Source: an uncultured Chloroflexia bacterium (GTDB lineage Bacteria > Chloroflexota > Limnocylindria > Limnocylindrales > CSP1-4). From it: 64,000 bases of DNA. Below the pieces are notes generated by a model that did no database searches, had not been told where the DNA came from, and was given only the letters and a program-made list of their open reading frames with translations. The stretch spans positions 914,154 through 978,153 of the forward strand of contig CAVRHM010000006.1 in the NCBI GenBank assembly GCA_963721015.1, in the 5' to 3' direction. Position 1 is the first letter of the stretch; the number at the start of each line of letters is the position of its first letter. Position numbers and translations under genes: made by a program. Below are positions 36,483 through 46,020 of the stretch, piece after piece.

Positions 36483-38626
36483 TCACTTGGCGTCCCGGAT
36501 GGCCGGCACGAGGAAGCCGGCCAGGCCGGCGACCACACTGACCAGCCCGAACGTCGCCAGGACGAACTGGACGCCGATGAGCTCGGCCAACACGCCGCCG
36601 ACGGCCATGGCGATGGCCATCGACCCGAAGACGAGCCAGAACCGGAAGCCGACGACCCGGCCCATCAGGGCGGCCGGGGTCCGTTCCTGGAAGAGGGCCT
36701 GGCTGGGGATGACGAACATCATGTTGGCGATCCCCGACCCGAAGGCGATCCCGATGGCCACGCCCAGGTTGCCGGTCAGCGCCAGGGCGGCCACGGCGAC
36801 CCCCCATGCCGCGTAGCCGACGCTGATCATCCGGCCCTTGGCCAGGCGCGCGCCGACGAGGCCGATGACGAAGCCGCCCAGCAGGTTGCCGGCGCTGGTC
36901 GCGCCCTCCAGGAAGCCGTAGGCGGCCACGGCCTGGGACCGCCCGTACACGACGGCCGCGTAGGTCGGCATGAGCGCCGTGATCGCGCCGACGCTGAGCT
37001 GGGCCACGGACGCCTGGATGGTGTTCGCCCACAGCGTCAATTCGCTGCGCAGGAAGGTGTAGCCGGCGCGCAGCTCGGCGACGAAGCCCTGGCCGGCGCC
37101 CGTCTCGACCTCGGCGTCTTCGGCGGCGTCTTCGGCGGTCGCCGCGCGGACGACCATCGTGCTCAGCAGGAGGGCCGACCCGATGTAGGTCGCCGCATCC
37201 AGCCAGAACGCGACGGGCAGGGCGCTGCCCAGGGCCGCGACGAACAGGGCTGCCAGCGGGAAGCCGACGACGTCGGCCAGGGTCTCGCCCACCCACAGGG
37301 CGGAGTTGGCGGTCACGAGCTCGTCCTTGTCGACGAGCTGGGGCAGGATCGCCACCCGGGCCGGCCGGAAGAAGATCGAGATGGAGGTCATGACGAACAC
37401 GAGCGGGTAGACGAACAGCGGGTTGGTCACGAGGGCGATCGGGACGATCAGGACGACCGCCGCGCGCAGGAGGTCGCTGACGATGAGGACCTCACGCCGG
37501 TCCCAGCGGTCGACCAGGGTGCCCGCGATGGGGCTGACGATGAGGTTCGGGACGAACGCGGCCACGAACACGAACGCCGAGGCGATCGGCGAGCCGGTCA
37601 CGATGAGGACGGCGGTCGCCAGGGCGACCTGATGGATGCGGTCGCCGAACAGCGAGATGAGCTGGCCGGCCCACAGCGCCGTGAACGAGCCGTTGAGGGC
37701 CAGGCGGACGTACGGGTGGCGGCGGACCCGCTCCACCGCCTCCGTGGATGGCCGCGGGAGGGCGATGACCGGCGCGCCGGGGGCCGACGACGCGCAGTCG
37801 GCACGCCGGCCGCCTCGAACGCCGCGGCGATCGTCGCATCGTCGAGCCGGCCGGCCGCCGACGGTGCCGGGAGCGGCGCGAGGGCCGGCGACTTGATGAG
37901 CGGTCCCTGCGATCCGAGCATCACCGGCCGCTGCAGGCCGGCGGCAGGGTTCAGGGCCGGGGCGAGGCCGGTCTCGGCCTGGATGCCCGTGCCACCATCC
38001 GGGCGCGGCAGTCGGGTCGAGCTGGCCAGGCCAACGAGCCGGCGCCGGATGGCCTCCTCCTCGTGGGCCTCCAGGACGGTCGGGATGCGGACGACGCTGG
38101 CGAACAGGAAGAACCCGAGGCCCAGGGACAGGAACACATCGCCCAGCGATGCCACGTTGTTGAACGGCGGGACGGGGATGGGGATGACGTCGCCGAAGAT
38201 CAGGCCACGCAGCAGGAAGTCCGCCGCGTCGGCGTCCTCCACGACGACGTGGAGGTTGGAGATGACCTGCGACGGGTCGTAGCCTGCCGCGACCAGCGCC
38301 GGCTCCCAGATCGGCATGTAGCCGCCGTTGAGGAGGATGACGACGGCGTTGAGCAGGATGCCGACGAACGCGAGGCCCAGGCCCGGGTAGCCGCGGTTGA
38401 CCCACAGCCCCACCAGCAGCAGCCCGAAGCTGGCGGCCAGGAGCGGGACGCGGAGCACGTCCGCGATCGGGAGGCCGGCATCGAGCAGCGCCTCCGTCCC
38501 GAACCGGATGATGACGGCCGCGAACAGGAGCGGGACGAGGCGGAGCTGGATGGCGCCGAGGTTCACGAGCCGGCCGCCCGCGAGCAGGCCGAGCACGAGG
38601 CCGAGGATGATGCCGGCGATCAACAC
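36483..38626 (-). CDS. DUF5317-like membrane domain fused to an MFS transporter (one frameshift at ~37810)
   Basis: ORF 37598..38626: GLLAGG, LLNAVVILLNGGYMP, FGDVIP, SLGDVF. ORF 36483..38405: LWAGQLISLFGDRIH, GTLVDRWDRR, LMGRV. No start codon or SD seen at the MFS junction. Confidence 0.72.
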
Positions 38627-38756
38627 GGGCGAAGCCTGGGGGTTCGGCGCTCCGTCACCGCGACATCATGCTGGAGCGCGAACGTCGCCGTCCGCTCGGG
38701 GACCCGAGGGCGGGACGGGAGAGGGAACGCGGGGCCGCGGTCGGGCGGCCGGGCGC

Positions 38757-40203
38757 TCAGGCCTGTTCGGGCGCCGCCGCGGTCGCCGACGCGGTGGCCG
38801 GCAGGGCGGGCACGGCCGGGATCGTCGTGGCCGTCGGGCTCGGGTCGGGCGCTCCGCCGGTCATCCGCGCAGCGGCCTGGCCGATGAGCGGGATGGGCCG
38901 CGGCTGGACGGTCCGGCCGGGGTCGGCCACGCCCTCGACGTGGTGGGTCCGGACGAACGCATCGACGACGACCGGGTCGAACTGGATGCCGGCGAACTTG
39001 CGCAGCTCGGCGAGGGCCTGCTCGGCGGTCAACGGGGTCATCCGGTACGGGCGGGCCGCCGTCATCGCCTCGAAGGCGTCCGCGACGTGGAGGATGCGCG
39101 CGAGCTTCGGGGATCTCGTCGCCGATGAGGCGGTCCGGGTAGCCCGAGCCGTTGTACCACTCGTGGTGGTGGCGGATGATCGGCAGCTCGGGCGCCAACT
39201 TCGTGACCGGGGCGATGATCTCCGCGCCCAGGACCGGGTGCGCGTTCATGATCATCCGCTCCTCGCGGTTGAGGCGCTCCTGCTTGAGCAGGACGTTGTC
39301 CGGTACGCCGATCTTGCCGACGTCGTGGAGCAGACCGCCCCACTCGAGCGCTTCCACCTCGGCGTCGTTGACGTGCATGACTTGCCCGATGTCGACCGCG
39401 ATCTCCTTGACCCGGACGCTGTGCATCGCCGTGAACGGATCGCGCTTGTCCACCGCCTCGGCCAGCGCGCCGATCGTCTGGGTGAACATCTCGCGCATCT
39501 CGACGAAGCGCCGGTATGCCATCCGCGTCGAGTACAGCGGGATGGCAAACAGAGCGGTTGCCCACCACTGCACGACGTAGATCACGGACATCAACCACGC
39601 TAGCGGCGCGAGGGCAAAGACGCCGCCCATGATTCCTCGGATGTCGCCGATGAACACGTCTCGGGGCGATTGGCCGGTTCGCAGCCCGATTGCGGTGGAA
39701 ACGAGCGCCAAGTTGCCCACGATGAAGATCACGGCTGCGGCCATTGCCGACGCGAAGTCAGACGCAACACCCGGAAGGTACTCAAGCCATACGTGGCGGG
39801 TCACACCGGCAACGACCGCGGGTAGAACCAGTGCCGCGTGGTTGGCAAGAGTTCCATACCAGGGGACCTTTCCCCTGATCTCGCGAAGCTCCGTGGTGCC
39901 GATTAGTGCGACCCAGCCCGCGACGGCAGGCCCACCGAGGAACATCGAGCCCATGATCGGAGCGATCGCGACAGCCTGTTGTGTGCCTCGGGGCAACTGA
40001 ACAGGGAACGCCGAACTCACGAGTGTGAGCCCGATCCAATAGGCAACCCCCAGGGATGTCGCCACGCCCGCTGGGAGTGTGCGGGCCCCGTCGAGCTGGA
40101 TCGCGATAGCTGCAGACGGTTCAAAGAGAATTGTCGAGGCCATTAGCGCCAAGGCGCCAATGGCCACGACCGCGATGATGTACAGCTTCAATGAGACCGG
40201 CAT
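38757..40203 (-). CDS. Membrane-bound HD-GYP domain protein (putative c-di-GMP phosphodiesterase), frameshift near 39105
   Basis: About 6-7 N-terminal TM helices; DKRDPFTAMHSVRV, LLHDVGKIG, HHEWYNGSGYP, ILHVADAFEAMTAARPYR, QFDP. Confidence 0.9.
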
Positions 40204-40276
40204 TGCTGCCTCGTACGACCCAATCCCCGCTTCACTCTAACCCGTTGTCAGACGGCGCGGTAATGGGACATCCGTA

Positions 40277-40366
40277 CTAGAAGCCTCTAAGCGAAGCCCC
40301 CCCAGCGAGTGCGATCATCGCCACGCTAGAAAGCGTGATTGCGATACGCATAAGTTTGGCCTTCAT
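40277..40366 (-). CDS. 29-aa signal-peptide-like precursor MKAKLMRIAITLSSVAMIALAGGASLRGF
   Basis: Basic n-region, hydrophobic h-region, LAGG then a short tail; first gene under the riboswitch. Confidence 0.7.
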   Translation of the reverse strand: MKAKLMRIAITLSSVAMIALAGGASLRGF

Positions 40367-40450
40367 CGTGGTAGCTCGACTACCAGGCCTTGGCGGACTC
40401 GGGTGCCACGCTCGTTCCTCCTTCGCGGCCTCCGTGCTCCGAAAAGCACG

Positions 40451-40480
40451 AAAACCGACCAGACTCATGGTCGGTCGGTT
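40451..40480 (-). terminator. Intrinsic terminator (riboswitch expression platform)
   Basis: Minus strand AACCGACCGACC-ATGAGTCT-GGTCGGTTTT; the stem uses the 3' end of the aptamer. Confidence 0.7.
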
Positions 40481-40565
40481 GCACTACTTGCTCCGCCTCA
40501 CCCTAAGTGCCCATTTCAGGTGAGGCATCGGCGCGTCCGAGCGTCTTGACGTTGCTTCCTAGTAC
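40470..40565 (-). ncRNA. c-di-GMP-II riboswitch aptamer
   Basis: Minus strand GGAAGC...GCCTCACC-TGAAATGGGCACTTAG-GGTGAGGC-GGAGCAAGTAGTGCAACCGACC. This matches the class-II landmarks GGAAAC / AAAU-GGGCACUU / GAG-UAGUAGUGCAACCGACC, including GGGCAC-GTGC pseudoknot complementarity. Lies upstream of an HD-GYP gene. Confidence 0.8.
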
Positions 40566-40587
40566 TGGGGTACTAGCAAGTGGCCGG

Positions 40588-40617
40588 ACTTTACGGATGC
40601 CGGAGTAGTACGGTCAA
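40588..40617 (-). promoter_or_regulatory. Putative promoter of the riboswitch-peptide operon
   Basis: TTGACC-N18-TAAAGT just upstream of the aptamer. Confidence 0.5.
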
Positions 40618-40636
40618 TACGGCACCTTACCTATCC

Positions 40637-43600
40637 CTACAGGGATTCGAGGGGGATTGGCTCTGTGCCGAGCTCGTCGCGAACGTAATTGGCATAGTGT
40701 CCGTACTGTTCGGCGGCAGCCGCGTGAGCTCCCGTCGCTCGGTACAGGCGAAGCAGCGCAACCTCGACCTGCTCAGCATCCGGATCCACTTCTAGGGTGC
40801 GTCGGGCAAGCGCAATCGCGCGATCGTAGTGACCGGATCCGAAGTCAGCCCTGACCGCGCGTTCCAGGATCTCGAGGTAGGCGGCATGGAGACCGTCGCG
40901 GTACGCACTCGACCACTCTTCGTACTCGAAGTCCATCGCGAAGCGGCCACGATACAAATCCGCCAGAGAGGCTATGTCGGTTGGGCTCGAATGGGCCGTG
41001 ATCTGGCGGATGAAGACTCGGCACTGGATCGACCTGCTTGTCACCAACTCCGGATCCAACCACACGACGTCACCGTCGTGATGAACGTATCCCGGTGACA
41101 AATCCTCCGCAAAGTCTTCCTCAAATACGCGGCGGAGGAAGTAGATGGTCTGGTTAAGCGAGTTGACAGCGACATCCGGATCCTGTTCAGGCCAAAGAGC
41201 ATCGAGGACTTGGTCTCGGGTCGCGGAGGAATTCGGTCGCGTCAGGAGGAAGCAAAGTAATGCTAAGACTTTGCGCCGAATCGAGGACCCTGCGACCTCT
41301 GAGTCTCCGATCCGGATGGCCGTTCGGCCCTGGTCTTCCACGAAGACTCGATCTGCAAGCCGGCGTGCGAGAGTTCGGCCAAGCATGGCCACGTAGCGCC
41401 GCCGCTTGACTCCTCGGGCGAACTGCCGAAGGAGGGCGATGTCGGCCTTTTCGCCGATCTCCTCGAGCATCTCGGCGGCTCGGAGGCGCTCGGCTCTGGG
41501 TTCTTGCACCAGCTTCCGCAGCACGGCGCGCCAGCGGTCTGGATGAAGGCGCGCCGCCCGCAGGGCCACATCTACGGCTTCATGTGTCAGGTCGTCGAGA
41601 CGATCGGCGACAAGGTCTGCGACCGCTGTGATGTGCCATAAGTGGTCATGTCCGATGACTACCAGGGATCGCGAAGCGGCTTCAGGGCTGGTGGCAAGTG
41701 CCTGAAGGATCTCGCCGATGCGCCTGTTCGCATAGAGGCCCGATCCAGTCGCGGACTGCTGAGCTTGAGTGAGGATCCCACGACTGTGGCCCGCGTCAGT
41801 GAACAGGTCGCATTGGGCGACAAGCAAGTCTCGACTCGACGCGATGCCGACCATCGTCGCGACACCTTCGGGGTATTGCCTGAGAATGGCGCGAGCCTCA
41901 GTTGGGCGGCCATCGCGAAGCGCCATGCGTGCGGCGGTCACCACCCATAGCCGACGTTCCGCAACCGACTGGGTCGACAGGTCGCCGACGCGTTCAAAGA
42001 GCTGAAGCGCTGTATCGGGGTTGCCCCATCCATCGAACGCTTCCGCGGCTTCGAGGAGAACGTCGTTCTCGAGAGCGCCGCCGCCGCTCAAGAGGCCGTC
42101 GAGGAGCGCCAAGGCCTCCGAGAGTCGACCGAGTCGTGCCAGGACGGATATGAGGAGCGCCGTGGCTGCGTTCCGTTCGAGCTTGGACGACGTGTCGCCG
42201 AACGCTTCCAATGCCTCTCCAACCTCGCGCTCAGCATCGGCAAGTCGGTCCTGTTGGACCGAGATCGTGGCGAGGTTGTACATCGAGACACCAAAGTGAT
42301 GGACCTGCGCATCTCGCTGGTCCTTGGCCATCGATCGGAGCAGTCGGATTAGGGACTCGATGTCGGCAGCTGTCTCGAGTCGGAGGAGCGCAGCGGAGGC
42401 TCTCGCGATCGATCGCAGGTTGGGGTCGGAAGTCGTCGACTCAAGGTGGTCGGCCAGTACGAGTGCCCGCTCCCCGTATCCATAGTTGAAGCTGACAGCG
42501 AGCAGATTCAGCATCGCGTGGTCGCGTTCCACAGGGCCAGCGGAGGCGGAGTCCAGCACCGCCTGGGCTGCGGCCGTTGCTGCTTCGAAGTCGCCCTCCT
42601 GGTAGTCGATCCGCCCTTTGATGAGTTGTGAGCCAGGCGGCATGATTTCGCTTGGGGCGTCGACGACGAAGGCTGCGGCGAGCGAATACTGGGCGTTGCC
42701 CATGATGGTCGGGACCGCGTCGTTGATGACGTCCAGCATGGTCTGGAGGTCGTGGGCCTCGCGATAGTGGTGGGCCGCGACGCGCCAGTCGGTCGAGGCT
42801 GCGGCCGCGCCGGCCCGACGGTGGAGATCGTCGACGTCAGCATCCCCATCCGCGGATCGGAGGCGGGCCTCGAGGAACTCGCGGACGAGCGGGTGATAGC
42901 GAAGATGGGTCCGCGGCCCGCCGGACACTCGACTCAACAACGTCAATCGCTCGGCGTCGATCGTCAGCCGGGCGACCTCCGGTCCCGGTTCGTCGCTGAC
43001 CACCTCGGCCATCTCCGGCGTAACGATCTGAAGGACCGACGTGGTCATGAGGAAGCGCTGGAGGTCCTCGGGCAGGTCGCCGACGACCTCCTCGGCGAGA
43101 TAGTCGTAGAGGTCACTGTCCGCGCCGCTCAGGTCGCGCACGAATTGGCGGATCTCCCTGGGCGTGCGATTGCGCAGGGCGGCCTGGACGAGCTGCAAAG
43201 AGGCGATCCACCCCTCCGTCCGGACGGCTAGATCGCGCAGGATGTCCGGCTCGATGGACCGGCCGTAGGTCTCGGTGAACAGCAGGGCCGTTTCGCTCGC
43301 GTCGAACCGGAGGTCATCCGTGCCGACCTCGGCGACCTCGCCGACCGCGCGAAGGCGCCCCAGCGGTATCGTCGGCGCGCGACGGCTGGCGAATGCGATC
43401 GTCAACCGCTCTGGCGCTCGAGCCACCAACTCCCGAGCGACGTAACGCGCGTCCGGTGCGTCGTCGACGAGGTGGAAGTCGTCGAAGATCAGGAGGGCGC
43501 CACCCTCTACCATCGCCGACAGTTCGCGGACGAACGTCTCGACGACAGCGTCTCGGGTCGGCCCGCCGACGCCGATCTCGGCTAGAAGGGAGGCCGTCGT

Positions 43601-44080
43601 CGGCGCGAAGCCCGGCTCATGCTCCCGGCCGGCGGCGACAAGGTGGTGGAGGATCGAGGTCCAGTCGCGATCGTCCGCATCCAGTCGATACCAGAGGGTC
43701 CGGACGCGGGTCCGACGCGAGAAGTCGGCGAGCAACGTCGTCTTGCCGAAGCCAGCGTCAGCGATGAGCAGGATGACCCGATGGTGGAGCTTGGCGGCCA
43801 GCCAATCGAGCAGTCGTGGTCGCGCCAGCGTCTCGTCACGGAGCGCGGGCGGCTGGACCTTCGCGAGCTGGACGGGGAATCCGACGACCTCGTCGCGCAG
43901 GGGTCCACCTCTTCCAAGCGGGACCACGCCAGACGCCGGGCCCATGCCGACGTCGGCTGGCGAGCGACTCACCGACGCCCGGGCTGACGCCAGCTGTCCG
44001 AGCGGCGCGAACGATACCGAGCGCTCCGGAGGAGCGTCAACGGAGGCATCCAGGACTGTGCGTTCCCGCATCTTCGACAT
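40637..44080 (-). CDS. MalT-like STAND ATPase-TPR regulator with C-terminal SARP (winged helix + BTAD)
   Basis: ADAGFGKTT Walker A, LIFDDFH Walker B, TEGWIASLQL, YHPLVREFL; C-terminal RRKVLALLCFLL...DQVLDALWPE, LYRGRF, VDPDAE...LLRLY. Confidence 0.88.
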   Translation of the reverse strand: MSKMRERTVLDASVDAPPERSVSFAPLGQLASARASVSRSPADVGMGPASGVVPLGRGGPLRDEVVGFPVQLAKVQPPALRDETLARPRLLDWLAAKLHHRVILLIADAGFGKTTLLADFSRRTRVRTLWYRLDADDRDWTSILHHLVAAGREHEPGFAPTTASLLAEIGVGGPTRDAVVETFVRELSAMVEGGALLIFDDFHLVDDAPDARYVARELVARAPERLTIAFASRRAPTIPLGRLRAVGEVAEVGTDDLRFDASETALLFTETYGRSIEPDILRDLAVRTEGWIASLQLVQAALRNRTPREIRQFVRDLSGADSDLYDYLAEEVVGDLPEDLQRFLMTTSVLQIVTPEMAEVVSDEPGPEVARLTIDAERLTLLSRVSGGPRTHLRYHPLVREFLEARLRSADGDADVDDLHRRAGAAAASTDWRVAAHHYREAHDLQTMLDVINDAVPTIMGNAQYSLAAAFVVDAPSEIMPPGSQLIKGRIDYQEGDFEAATAAAQAVLDSASAGPVERDHAMLNLLAVSFNYGYGERALVLADHLESTTSDPNLRSIARASAALLRLETAADIESLIRLLRSMAKDQRDAQVHHFGVSMYNLATISVQQDRLADAEREVGEALEAFGDTSSKLERNAATALLISVLARLGRLSEALALLDGLLSGGGALENDVLLEAAEAFDGWGNPDTALQLFERVGDLSTQSVAERRLWVVTAARMALRDGRPTEARAILRQYPEGVATMVGIASSRDLLVAQCDLFTDAGHSRGILTQAQQSATGSGLYANRRIGEILQALATSPEAASRSLVVIGHDHLWHITAVADLVADRLDDLTHEAVDVALRAARLHPDRWRAVLRKLVQEPRAERLRAAEMLEEIGEKADIALLRQFARGVKRRRYVAMLGRTLARRLADRVFVEDQGRTAIRIGDSEVAGSSIRRKVLALLCFLLTRPNSSATRDQVLDALWPEQDPDVAVNSLNQTIYFLRRVFEEDFAEDLSPGYVHHDGDVVWLDPELVTSRSIQCRVFIRQITAHSSPTDIASLADLYRGRFAMDFEYEEWSSAYRDGLHAAYLEILERAVRADFGSGHYDRAIALARRTLEVDPDAEQVEVALLRLYRATGAHAAAAEQYGHYANYVRDELGTEPIPLESL

Positions 44081-44142
44081 GGTGCTTGGAAGCGCTCAAC
44101 GCGCGGTTATCTGCAGCGCGCCGTGCCTGACCGGTCGCCGCC

Positions 44143-44346
44143 CTAGCCCTCGTATTCGAAGCCGATCTTGACTTCGACCCGGTACTCGACGATCTCGCCG
44201 TCCTCGACCCGGGCGCTCGACTTCACGACCTCGACCGTCTGGATGTTGCGGACCGTCTTGGACGCCGTGGCGACGGCCTGGCGGGCGGCGTCGCTCCACG
44301 AGCGCGGACTCGTGCCGACCATCTCGCGGATGATGATGACGCCCAC
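44143..44346 (-). CDS. Dodecin-family protein
   Basis: EMVGTSPRSWSDAARQAV..ASKTVRNI....V...VEDGEIVEYRV..KIGF. Confidence 0.88.
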   Translation of the reverse strand: MGVIIIREMVGTSPRSWSDAARQAVATASKTVRNIQTVEVVKSSARVEDGEIVEYRVEVKIGFEYEG

Positions 44347-44448
44347 GACCGCACCTCCAGAAGGACCGCTCGGCGACCGGCCGCCATCATGCCAGAGGCC
44401 GGTCCGTCGCCGGGCCGGCCTCGAGTTCGCGCGGTAGAAGTCGCGTGG

Positions 44449-44760
44449 TCAGGCGTGCGCGGGCGTGGACTCCTCCAACGTGCCGGCGCGGACCTTGTCG
44501 AAGCAGGAGCTGCAGTAGACCGGTCGGTCGTTGCGCGGCGCGAACGGCACGACGGCCTGGCCCCCGCAGGCGCCGCAGATCGCGGCATGGAACTCGCGCG
44601 GGCCCTCACCCGATCGAGCCCGCTTGGCGGCCGCTCGACACGACGGGCATCGCTGCGGGTCGTTCGTGAGGCCTTTGCTGGCGTAGAAGGCCTGCTCCCC
44701 AGCCGAGAAGATGAACTCCTCGGAGCAGTCCCGGCAAGGCAGCGTTCGGTCCTGGTACAC
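44449..44760 (-). CDS. Zinc-ribbon / CxxC-x17-CxxC domain protein
   Basis: GTG after GGAGAGG; DRTLPCRDC.EEF.FSAGEQAFY..KG..N.P.RCP.CR and CGACG....VPF.P...RPVYCSSCF. Confidence 0.88.
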   Translation of the reverse strand: MYQDRTLPCRDCSEEFIFSAGEQAFYASKGLTNDPQRCPSCRAAAKRARSGEGPREFHAAICGACGGQAVVPFAPRNDRPVYCSSCFDKVRAGTLEESTPAHA

Positions 44761-45102
44761 CCTCTCCAGACCCTCCAATGCTCGGACGCCATGACGGTCG
44801 GAGTCGCCGGGCACACATAGCGCAGGGGCCGGTGAGCCGGTCGCGTCTGGAACGGGGCGCGCGCCCGGGTCGGTCCGGGTCGTGCCCAGGACTCTTAGCG
44901 GAGACGATACGCGCGGCGTCAAGGGGTTCTGGGGCCTCGTCCCGGTGCCGGATACGGGTCGGATATGCGACCCTCGCCGCGGTGCCGAGTGAGCACGGGT
45001 CGAACGGAGGGATCGATGGCCATGACGGGGGTGGTGCGCGAGGGCACCGACGGACCACGAGGCGGGCCGGAACCGGTGGCGGGGACGCCGCGTCCGGCGG
45101 CC

Positions 45103-46020
45103 ATGTCACATCACCGACGCCGTTCCCTCAGCCTGCTCGCCACGCCCGTGCTCGTGCTCGCGGTCGCGGCCTGTTCCACGTCCGGCGGCGCGTCGCCGGC
45201 GGCCAGCACCGACACCTCGGGGCCCTCGACCGCGCCGTCCGGAGCCCCCACCAGCTCGGGCGCCATCGAGCATCCGACCGGCGCGACCGACGTCATCCTT
45301 CGCTACGAGGAGGGCGGCGGGTTCGTCATGCCGGCGTTCACGGCCAGCCAGATCCCGCACTTCACCCTGTACGGCGACGGCACGATCGTCTATCGCGATC
45401 CGGCTGCGGAGCTGCCGCCGGCCCAGGGCTCGGTGTTCGTCATGAACCCGGCCCGGACGGCCACGCTGACCGAGGACCAGATCCAGGAGCTGCTCGCTTT
45501 CGCGCTCGGGGAAGGCGGCCTCGCCGCGGCCCGGCCGGAATACCTCAATCAGATGATCGCGGACGCCTCGACGGCGATCTTCACGATCGACGCCGGCGGG
45601 CTCCAGAAGATGGTCTCCGTGTACGCGCTCGGCCTCGAGATGGAGAACGATCCGGACGGGCCGGCCCGCCTGGCCTTCAAGCGGCTCGCCGAGCGGCTCG
45701 TCGGGCTCGAGGGCGGCGGGGTCATCACCGGGGCCGACTACACGCCCGAGGGCTATCGGGTGACCCTGCTCGAGTCGCCCGGTGCCGTGGCGCCGGATGT
45801 CCGGGCCTGGCCGTGGGCGGACGTCGCGGTCACCGACTTCGTCCCGTCCGTCGATCCGAACGGCCCACAGTTCCCGCACCTGACGATGACGTCGGAGCAG
45901 CTCGACCAGCTCGACATCACCGACTACGAGGGCGGCTTCCAGGGCCTGCTCATCACCGGCCCCGACGGCAAGACCTACACGCTCGCGGCGCGGCCGATCC
46001 TTCCGGGTGAGTCTGGATGA
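45103..46020 (+). CDS. Lipoprotein of unknown function
   Basis: Lipobox AVAAC; Ser/Thr/Pro-rich linker; FTLYGDG.IVY motif. Confidence 0.7.
   Translation: MSHHRRRSLSLLATPVLVLAVAACSTSGGASPAASTDTSGPSTAPSGAPTSSGAIEHPTGATDVILRYEEGGGFVMPAFTASQIPHFTLYGDGTIVYRDPAAELPPAQGSVFVMNPARTATLTEDQIQELLAFALGEGGLAAARPEYLNQMIADASTAIFTIDAGGLQKMVSVYALGLEMENDPDGPARLAFKRLAERLVGLEGGGVITGADYTPEGYRVTLLESPGAVAPDVRAWPWADVAVTDFVPSVDPNGPQFPHLTMTSEQLDQLDITDYEGGFQGLLITGPDGKTYTLAARPILPGESG

Follow-up and report, generated by a model that had tools for sequence, protein, structure and literature searches.

The stretch of DNA analysed here (the window; 64,000 nt, C6:914154-978153 of a 3.39-Mb, 8-contig assembly) carries a conserved signalling locus of a soil 'Candidatus Limnocylindrales' bacterium (Chloroflexota), in which a large MalT/SARP-type regulator, a riboswitch for cyclic di-GMP (c-di-GMP), two very small peptide genes and an HD-GYP phosphodiesterase are encoded side by side. 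A block of low guanine-plus-cytosine (GC) content lies across this locus at 39610-42505, and we consider it likely to be a long-lived allelic cassette. In relatives, single species harbour very different versions of the cassette, and homologous recombination within the conserved flanks exchanges them as one piece. Of the signalling genes, the cassette holds only the input parts, namely the sensor and the DNA-binding half of the regulator, the two peptide genes (two micro open reading frames, micro-ORFs) and the membrane domain of the HD-GYP protein, and between them lie a predicted promoter and the c-di-GMP-II riboswitch. The flanks are formed by the NTPase module of the regulator and the HD catalytic domain, both of which are conserved. 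We infer that the cassette comprises the specificity-determining parts of the system. The cassette, its flanks and the parts of the two large genes are listed below, where GC3 denotes the share of GC at third codon positions and wHTH stands for winged helix-turn-helix.

39610..42505, (-) strand: low-GC allele cassette; edges taken from congeners, whose breakpoints have offsets of -1998 and +896 relative to the riboswitch anchor
40637..44080, (-) strand: regulator gene, 1147 residues; N-terminal MalT-type STAND NTPase, central helical-repeat sensor, C-terminal OmpR-type wHTH and BTAD (SARP)
42506..44080, (-) strand: NTPase and arm (regulator residues 1-526); left flank of the cassette, conserved and high in GC3 (0.82)
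41441..42505, (-) strand: regulator residues 527-880, hypervariable TPR-like sensor (23-38% pairwise amino-acid identity, GC3 0.65-0.70)
40637..41440, (-) strand: regulator residues 881-1147, wHTH and BTAD, inside the low-GC cassette (54-70% amino-acid identity, GC3 0.64-0.72)
39610..40203, (-) strand: HD-GYP residues 1-198, polytopic membrane (putative sensor) domain; variable (GC3 0.72)
38757..39609, (-) strand: HD-GYP catalytic domain, conserved high-GC3 right flank; Pfam HD_5 and HD (GC3 0.94-0.97)

In relatives, divergent alleles are exchanged between identical flanks

A riboswitch-pattern scan of metagenome contigs yielded 120 loci. When these were grouped by flanks at least 96% identical, three of the 12 groups contained sharply different cassettes, as seen in the pairs L091/L189, L113/L129 and L164/L179. 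In the first case, L091, L180 and L197 are 99.9-100% identical to L189 in both flanks, whereas their cassettes are only 45-80% identical. Nucleotide identity between L091 and L189 along the locus, with offsets counted from the riboswitch anchor, is as follows.

Left flank, -4200 to -1999: 100%
Regulator sensor: 45-66%
Regulator wHTH-BTAD: 65-80%
Promoter and riboswitch: 91-94%
Micro-ORF region: 59%
29-residue peptide gene: 82%
HD-GYP membrane domain: 50-75%
Right flank, +897 to +2842: 99-100%

The breakpoints fall at regulator residue ~526 (window position ~42505) and HD-GYP residue ~198 (window position ~39610), exactly where GC3 steps, and three pairs have their left boundary between -1980 and -1998. 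The original prediction, made from the sequence of the window, had proposed an exchanged allele cassette with intragenic breakpoints rather than a mobile element, to be checked by aligning the locus across relatives, and the cassettes of L091, L180 and L197 versus L189, of L113/L129 and of L164/L179 bear this out in congeners. Uniform divergence across the locus, which it named as the pattern that would speak against it, is not what these same-species contigs show. It had also expected discrete allele groups; we found very many alleles rather than a few groups, with 113 micro-ORF variants among 153 loci.

This evidence comes from metagenome contigs, in which assemblers could be misled by the cross-species conservation of the riboswitch and the HD domain, so that the divergent alleles might be assembly chimeras or paralogous copies. 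We regard such an artefact as very improbable. Each flank shows 99.9-100% identity along more than 2 kb, three independent pairs have the same boundaries, allele 1 was assembled independently in four samples, and the locus is present as a single copy in the genome studied here. In the sequencing runs X21, X22 and X27, the flank unitig ends exactly at the breakpoint k-mer, and the contigs leading into allele 1 and into allele 2 both start there. In X21, the depth of the flank (13.1) is the sum of those of allele 1 (5.7-7.9) and allele 2 (6.8), and in X26 the two alleles are found at depths of 6.9 and 6.95. Because both alleles branch from one flank unitig, they coexist in one population; the runs in which this branching was seen are rhizosphere samples.

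Two pairs of metagenome-assembled genomes (MAGs), L042/L058 and L073/L080, show a different distribution of divergence, in which only the regulator half (-2000 to approximately -900) is markedly more divergent than the flanks and the half with the peptides and the HD-GYP membrane domain tracks the flanks.

In the genome studied here, the cassette junctions were confirmed by mismatch-free unitigs from independent soils, and nothing indicates a recent swap in its lineage. Reads of its own species were difficult to isolate: at 85% likeness they were swamped by contigs of other species, and at 97% they gave 2-4x coverage in short unitigs.

The block is a compositional outlier with edges inside genes

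The block has a GC content of 0.617, compared with 0.718 and 0.695 in the adjoining flanks and 0.715 in the whole genome. Among 16,851 genome windows of equal size (mean 0.715, standard deviation (sd) 0.0225), it lies at z = -4.36, and just 0.28% of the windows have a GC content as low. In 300-nt windows, GC falls from 0.70-0.79 to 0.56-0.65 within ~39250 to ~42700. The original prediction had deduced a low-GC segment from sampled 60-mers, whose counts were exact on recount (35/60 at 40141, 32/60 at 41221 and 45/60 at 38041), and had suggested sliding-window GC and GC3 profiles as a check; with z = -4.4 against the genome, the segment is real and outside normal genome variance. Raw-GC windows were used for this comparison in place of a genome-wide GC3 ranking, which was dropped because shadow ORFs contaminate crude ORF calls.

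Third codon positions account for most of the drop in GC, which has its steps within two genes. GC3 changes from 0.82 (residues 1-526) to 0.69 (residues 527-1147) in the regulator, and from 0.72 (residues 1-198) to 0.94 (residues 199-364) in the HD-GYP gene. Both the placement of the boundaries inside genes and the host-like composition of the ATPase N-terminus and the catalytic HD-GYP domain (GC3 0.82 and 0.94) had been correctly read in the original prediction. That prediction had further stated that no integrase, transposase or flanking repeats are visible. No integrase or transposase was found among the seven ORFs scanned against Pfam (36483-46020), in agreement with that statement as far as these ORFs go, and flanking repeats were not searched for. 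The 64-kb window contains no tRNA gene.

Elsewhere in the genome, GC is this low only in the rRNA operon (C2:1-6497), C6:692001-694897 and C7:334001-342097. The second of these sits in a patch at ~683-721 kb with several low-GC3 ORFs, and the third, with a GC content of ~0.50, is located at a contig end; each is a candidate island or further cassette.

The trough is ancestral and maintained at equilibrium

Every one of the 41 full-length species loci, which represent more than one genus, has the low-GC trough in the same position (12 relatives were checked first, then 41). The edges of the trough lie from ~2200 nt before the regulator stop codon to ~1300 nt after it, and the mean GC of the 41 loci relative to this stop is 0.70 up to about -2400, 0.63 from -2000, 0.58 just after the stop and 0.72 from ~+1600. 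In a codon alignment of 24 intact regulator orthologues, GC3 is 0.84-0.88 for residues 55-330 and levels off at 0.65-0.70 between residue 527 and the C-terminus, with the step located at residues 480-527. In the HD-GYP genes of relatives, GC3 is 0.62-0.73 up to residue ~190 and 0.84-0.89 from ~212, with the step at residues 192-212.

The low GC does not depend on how well the protein is conserved, since the hypervariable middle of the regulator (23-38% identity) and the conserved wHTH-BTAD part (54-70%) have the same GC3. The NTPase and arm outside the cassette (residues 1-526) retain about 0.6-0.79 amino-acid identity across the 24 orthologues. The nonsynonymous substitution rate divided by the synonymous one (dN/dS) is below 1 everywhere, with values of 0.03-0.08 for wHTH-BTAD and 0.08-0.34 for the regulator sensor. 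In the C-terminal part of the regulator, four-fold sites have a between-species identity of 0.304, compared with 0.279 expected at random, and a G+C of 0.67, compared with 0.86 in the N-terminal flank. Since these sites are saturated and their G+C nevertheless stays at 0.67, the low GC represents a maintained local equilibrium rather than a decaying relic. Nor is the trough a property of the protein family, because a paralogue with the same domain order (~C2:121338) lacks it and has a GC3 of 0.77-0.86 throughout. For close species pairs, synonymous divergence (dS) is 0.58-0.80 in the N-terminal flank versus 1.3-2.3 or saturated in the middle and C-terminal parts, indicating that coalescence is deeper inside the cassette than in the flanks.

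These results change how the low GC of the window is to be understood. The original prediction implied that it is the trace of an exchange in this genome, whereas the trough is ancestral to 41 species and at compositional equilibrium. A 4.4-sd compositional outlier with intragenic boundaries is also what one would expect after recent acquisition from a lower-GC donor, either as a genomic island or as a cassette import that has not been ameliorated, and we find such an origin hardly credible. The same trough occupies the same place in species of more than one genus, and the locus and its trough occur in all 41 species loci rather than being present in some relatives and absent in others, as a genomic island would be. 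A relic would have been ameliorated by now, given the saturation of synonymous sites; the cassette of this genome branches where its flank branches; and neither a tRNA gene in the window nor an integrase or transposase in the seven Pfam-scanned ORFs marks an insertion.

Peptide genes, promoter and riboswitch inside the cassette

The segment between the regulator and HD-GYP genes contains the following elements.

40588..40636, (-) strand: conserved promoter block GGATAGGTAAGGTGCCGTATTGACC, from a 13-genome alignment; abuts the regulator stop codon
40559..40576, (-) strand: conserved palindrome CTAGTAC-CCCA-GTACTAG, just downstream of the -10 element
40464..40547, (-) strand: c-di-GMP-II riboswitch aptamer (Rfam RF01786, 65.6 bits versus a gathering cut-off of 53.5, E = 1.9e-13)
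40451..40479, (-) strand: terminator-like hairpin, in which the aptamer 3' end ACCGACC can pair with GGTCGG, followed by TTTT; conserved in 13 genomes
40380..40409, (-) strand: hypervariable micro-ORF encoding M-APESAKAW (9 residues), between the riboswitch and the 29-residue peptide gene
40277..40366, (-) strand: 29-residue hydrophobic peptide gene MKAKLMRIAITLSSVAMIALAGGASLRGF, with a conserved C-terminal half

The micro-ORF starts with GTG, 7 nt past a strong Shine-Dalgarno sequence, AAGGAGG (40417-40423), and its product has no signal sequence. Among 153 loci it encodes 113 distinct peptides, nearly all of 9-10 residues, which follow the pattern M-x-[PA]-[ED]-x-x-x-K-[GPA]-[WFY]-stop. The peptide varies between alleles of the same species, as in APESVKGW/APESAKAW, EPVAVGKGW/EPVYNNKPW and QPDSTLKGF/QPDQSIKGF. 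Five variants contain tandem repeats, for example MEIQSVTKGFTSVTKGFTSVTKGF and MTAESAKAWTASSAKAW. Such repeats hint at a processed unit of approximately 7 residues that ends in K-G-[WF].

The 29-residue peptide varies in its N-terminal half, whereas its C-terminal half, SSVAMIAxAGGASL[RK]G[FW], is almost constant. The original prediction had placed one peptide within the variable low-GC segment; the location was right, and the peptide it meant is this conserved 29-mer, the hypervariable one being the separate micro-ORF. The last five residues are common to the micro-ORF peptide and the 29-mer in 19% of 108 distinct pairs versus 1.1% after shuffling, a contrast inflated by the phylogenetic non-independence of the loci. 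The shared endings include TLKGF, SVKGW, SLKGW and SIKGF. In the genome studied here the two ends differ, SAKAW in the micro-ORF peptide and SLRGF in the 29-mer.

The block GGATAGGTAAGGTGCCGTATTGACC contains a promoter predicted from the consensus, with a -35 element TTGACC at 40612-40617, an 18-nt spacer and a -10 element TAAAGT at 40588-40593. The same block may be a binding site of the regulator. Downstream of the palindrome, a third copy of CTAGTAC (40274-40280) overlaps the stop codon of the 29-residue peptide gene. The riboswitch match spans the full RF01786 model (positions 1-84) and is the sole match in the whole genome. The hairpin that competes with the aptamer 3' end would act as an ON switch, judging from the predicted pairing. 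In view of the pairs L042/L058 and L073/L080, the cassette may consist of two modules that are separable at the conserved promoter and riboswitch.

In one further pair, L135/L204, otherwise identical contigs differ at offsets -98 to -48 (50 nt located between the -10 element and the riboswitch, 68% identity). We rejected an interpretation of this pair as the exchange of a sub-module, as both carry the same allele and the difference is confined to a short stretch of the leader.

The regulator, the HD-GYP protein and neighbouring genes

The gene order of the locus is dnaB, a zinc-finger gene, (a lipoprotein gene), the regulator, the peptides, HD-GYP, DUF5317 and MFS, and it is kept in every relative examined.

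By its sequence matches, the regulator has the N-terminal NTPase and arm of the MalT type. Residues 74-468 match MalT (PDB 8bob, E = 1.9e-29), and the NCBIfam model of MalT, NF003420, scores 177 bits over residues 73-455, which is below its 537-bit equivalog cut-off. Pfam assigns AAA_16 to residues 94-210, Trans_reg_C to 935-989 and BTAD to 1040-1142; the latter two are found instead of the LuxR-type HTH that forms the C-terminus of MalT. Residues 923-1143 match AfsR (PDB 8hvr, E = 3e-6). TPR matches in the sensor are weak (TPR_16, E = 0.0035, residues 601-664).

The membrane domain of the HD-GYP protein is 40-65% identical in amino-acid sequence to its congeners, and the catalytic domain is 84-92% identical. 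In the assembly, an additional base in the run of four C at 39109-39112 disrupts the HD-GYP frame between GDEIP and KLARILHVADAF. At 39109, the contigs of relatives are one base shorter, and no same-strain read crosses the site. The break could be an assembly error or a real frameshift; because most of the relatives are soil MAGs from a long-read survey, a homopolymer indel error is a likely cause. About half of the long-read MAG copies (L027-L086, MFD MAGs) of the regulator and HD-GYP genes are frame-broken, probably by homopolymer errors, and pseudogene calls in this lineage therefore need caution. The identity matrix of the HD catalytic domain was left unused, as frameshifts in nanopore MAGs made its values unreliable.

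Origin of the low GC and a possible role in communication

How could an allelic cassette come to be GC-poor? Its alleles differ by 25-50% of their nucleotides and would accordingly be too divergent to recombine with one another inside the cassette. Both GC-biased gene conversion and weak selection for codons ending in G or C depend on recombination and, in a genome of 71% GC, would be weakened there; for codon selection, the same weakening may be described as a Hill-Robertson effect in a non-recombining cassette. AT-biased mutation would then pull the cassette to a lower GC equilibrium.

As for function, the variable peptide or peptides and the two variable sensor domains could form matched sets resembling pherotypes, as suggested by their shared confinement to the cassette and by analogy. 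The candidate receptors are the sensor domain of the MalT/SARP regulator and the membrane domain of the HD-GYP phosphodiesterase. We put forward, tentatively, a pherotype-like peptide communication that feeds c-di-GMP signalling, in which a leaderless 9-10-mer signal encoded behind the riboswitch and a companion 29-mer would be read by two allele-matched receptors, many alleles would be kept by negative frequency-dependent selection, and the block to recombination would leave the low-GC footprint. Hundreds of peptide variants would be expected as signals in such a system.

Several observations weigh against this account of the block. The peptide MAPESAKAW is found with very different membrane domains, which weakens a strict pairing of one peptide with one receptor. 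No second allele was seen in the species of this genome itself, where coverage of 2-4x is too low to look for one. The DUF5317, MFS and lipoprotein genes are as divergent as the C-terminal part of the regulator and yet have high GC, so divergence alone does not lower GC. A locally raised rate of AT-biased mutation would likewise give both higher dS and lower GC. Finally, the cassette phylogeny follows that of the flank at depth (Mantel r = 0.87-0.93 among identity matrices of the N-terminal, middle and C-terminal segments, species representatives), and exchange must therefore occur mostly among close relatives. The three segment trees share the same three deep clades, with this genome in the same position in each. 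There is one strong conflict, in the middle segment of L082 (p = 3e-7 in the approximately unbiased (AU) test; the clades were picked after viewing the matrices, which makes the p-values optimistic). An apparent conflict for L046/L060 proved not to be real, because the alternative tree is not rejected by the data of the N-terminal segment.

The common deep topology of the three segments would also fit a purely vertical, gene-intrinsic origin, in which weakly expressed or fast-evolving sensors use A/T-ending codons and AT-rich amino acids without any exchange, and the slight decrease of GC at first codon positions (GC1) in the C-terminal part of the regulator and in the HD-GYP membrane domain points the same way. 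An ancestral feature inherited without exchange was our initial reading, and it was given up after the metagenome contig pairs and the unitig branching were found. It is improbable now, because same-species allele pairs and coexisting alleles have been seen directly, GC3 steps at recombination breakpoints within single genes and hence within single mRNAs, the well-conserved wHTH-BTAD part is as low in GC3 as the hypervariable part, and the paralogue of the same architecture has no trough.

Alternatively, AT-richness may itself be selected for a role of the DNA or RNA near the promoter and riboswitch, through a nucleoid-associated protein, silencing, mRNA structure or translation rate, or it may result from local AT-biased hypermutation. 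The GC minimum of 0.58-0.60 lies at the regulator 3' end, the intergenic region and the riboswitch, which together are among the parts of the locus best conserved in nucleotide sequence (0.74-0.82); dS is raised inside the cassette, as hypermutation predicts; and the divergent flanking genes keep their high GC. On the other hand, four-fold sites show no site-specific conservation beyond composition (0.304 versus 0.279), so the effect is diffuse and not bound to motifs, and A and T rise equally (0.166 and 0.167), without a strand-biased mutational signature. No diversity-generating machinery was found among the ORFs examined (seven scanned against Pfam, with no dedicated search), and the edges of the trough coincide with recombination breakpoints, which a purely regulatory function does not predict. 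We therefore hold selected or locally mutated AT-richness to be rather unlikely, and keep the long-lived allelic cassette as our interpretation of the block.

Comparison with known systems

In the staphylococcal agr system, the 3' end of agrB, agrD and the 5' end of agrC are hypervariable, the boundaries are intragenic and lie at domain junctions, and the catalytic and output domains are conserved. Divergent agr alleles coexist within species and are exchanged as a unit, and they fall into about four groups. The locus described here resembles agr in having a hypervariable core over a small peptide gene and half of a membrane sensor, with intragenic edges and conserved catalytic and output parts. 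The analogy with agr drawn in the original prediction thus fits in anatomy, as the hypervariable core is bounded inside genes. In contrast to agr, no homologues of AgrB, AgrC or AgrA are present; c-di-GMP hydrolysis and a MalT/SARP factor take the place of histidine kinase and response regulator; the cassette additionally contains a riboswitch and a second, cytoplasmic sensor; 113 micro-ORF variants among 153 loci compare with about four agr groups; and the host is an uncultured Chloroflexota.

The regulator likewise combines features of several families. Among its closest known relatives are MalT and the large ATP-binding (LAL) STAND regulators. The sensor of MalT is placed after the NTPase and before the DNA-binding domain, and that of the regulator has the same position, whereas the output is wHTH and BTAD rather than a LuxR-type HTH, and the sensor half is allelic and low in GC. 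Residues 923-1143 are homologous to the SARP domain of AfsR, in which the domain order is the reverse. It also differs from RRNPP receptors, which have a peptide-binding TPR domain, an N-terminal HTH or phosphatase and a secreted propeptide, in having an N-terminal STAND NTPase and a C-terminal SARP part.

In Bacillus subtilis ComQXP, polymorphism is found in comQ, in comX and at the 5' end of comP (PMC6334282). Nucleotide identity among the comQ clusters of the species is 65-70% (PMC4408185), which is comparable to the 45-80% across the cassette here. ComQXPA pherotypes are found together in soil and on roots, and our rhizosphere samples likewise contain the two alleles side by side. The protein families are different, however, no modifying enzyme was identified in our locus, the peptides are a leaderless 9-10-mer and a signal-peptide-like 29-mer, and there are two receptor candidates instead of one. 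Searches of Pfam, NCBIfam and PDB gave only MalT, SARP, HD-GYP, DUF5317 and MFS and no homology to AgrBDCA or ComQXPA. By analogy, the locus would work like agr and ComQXP without being a member of either by descent. With pherotype cassettes it shares a hypervariable block of putative signal and sensing parts with conserved output and, in congeners, divergent coexisting alleles swapped as a unit.

With respect to composition, Lassalle et al. (2015, PMC4450053) compared recombining and non-recombining bacterial genes and found GC3 to be higher in the former in 11 of 14 groups, a link ascribed to GC-biased gene conversion. Our case is similar in that GC3 is lower where homologous recombination would be rare and the effect is strongest at synonymous positions. 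It differs in that whole genes were compared in that study, whereas here the step occurs within genes at the cassette boundary.

Implications

A limited literature search found no published description of this locus. If our interpretation is correct, a balanced, swappable specificity cassette of the pherotype style exists in the Chloroflexota, an abundant and almost uncultured phylum of soil and rhizosphere. To our knowledge, none of its components, the MalT/SARP hybrid regulator, the riboswitch, the micro-ORFs or the HD-GYP enzyme, has been linked to kin or pherotype discrimination. The GC3 steps of 0.15-0.25 within single genes at recombination breakpoints, with the low value at equilibrium, would provide a natural test of whether bacterial GC is kept high by recombination, acting through GC-biased gene conversion or through selection that is more effective. 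Hidden allelic specificity cassettes in metagenomes could also be sought by looking for conserved GC troughs within genes.

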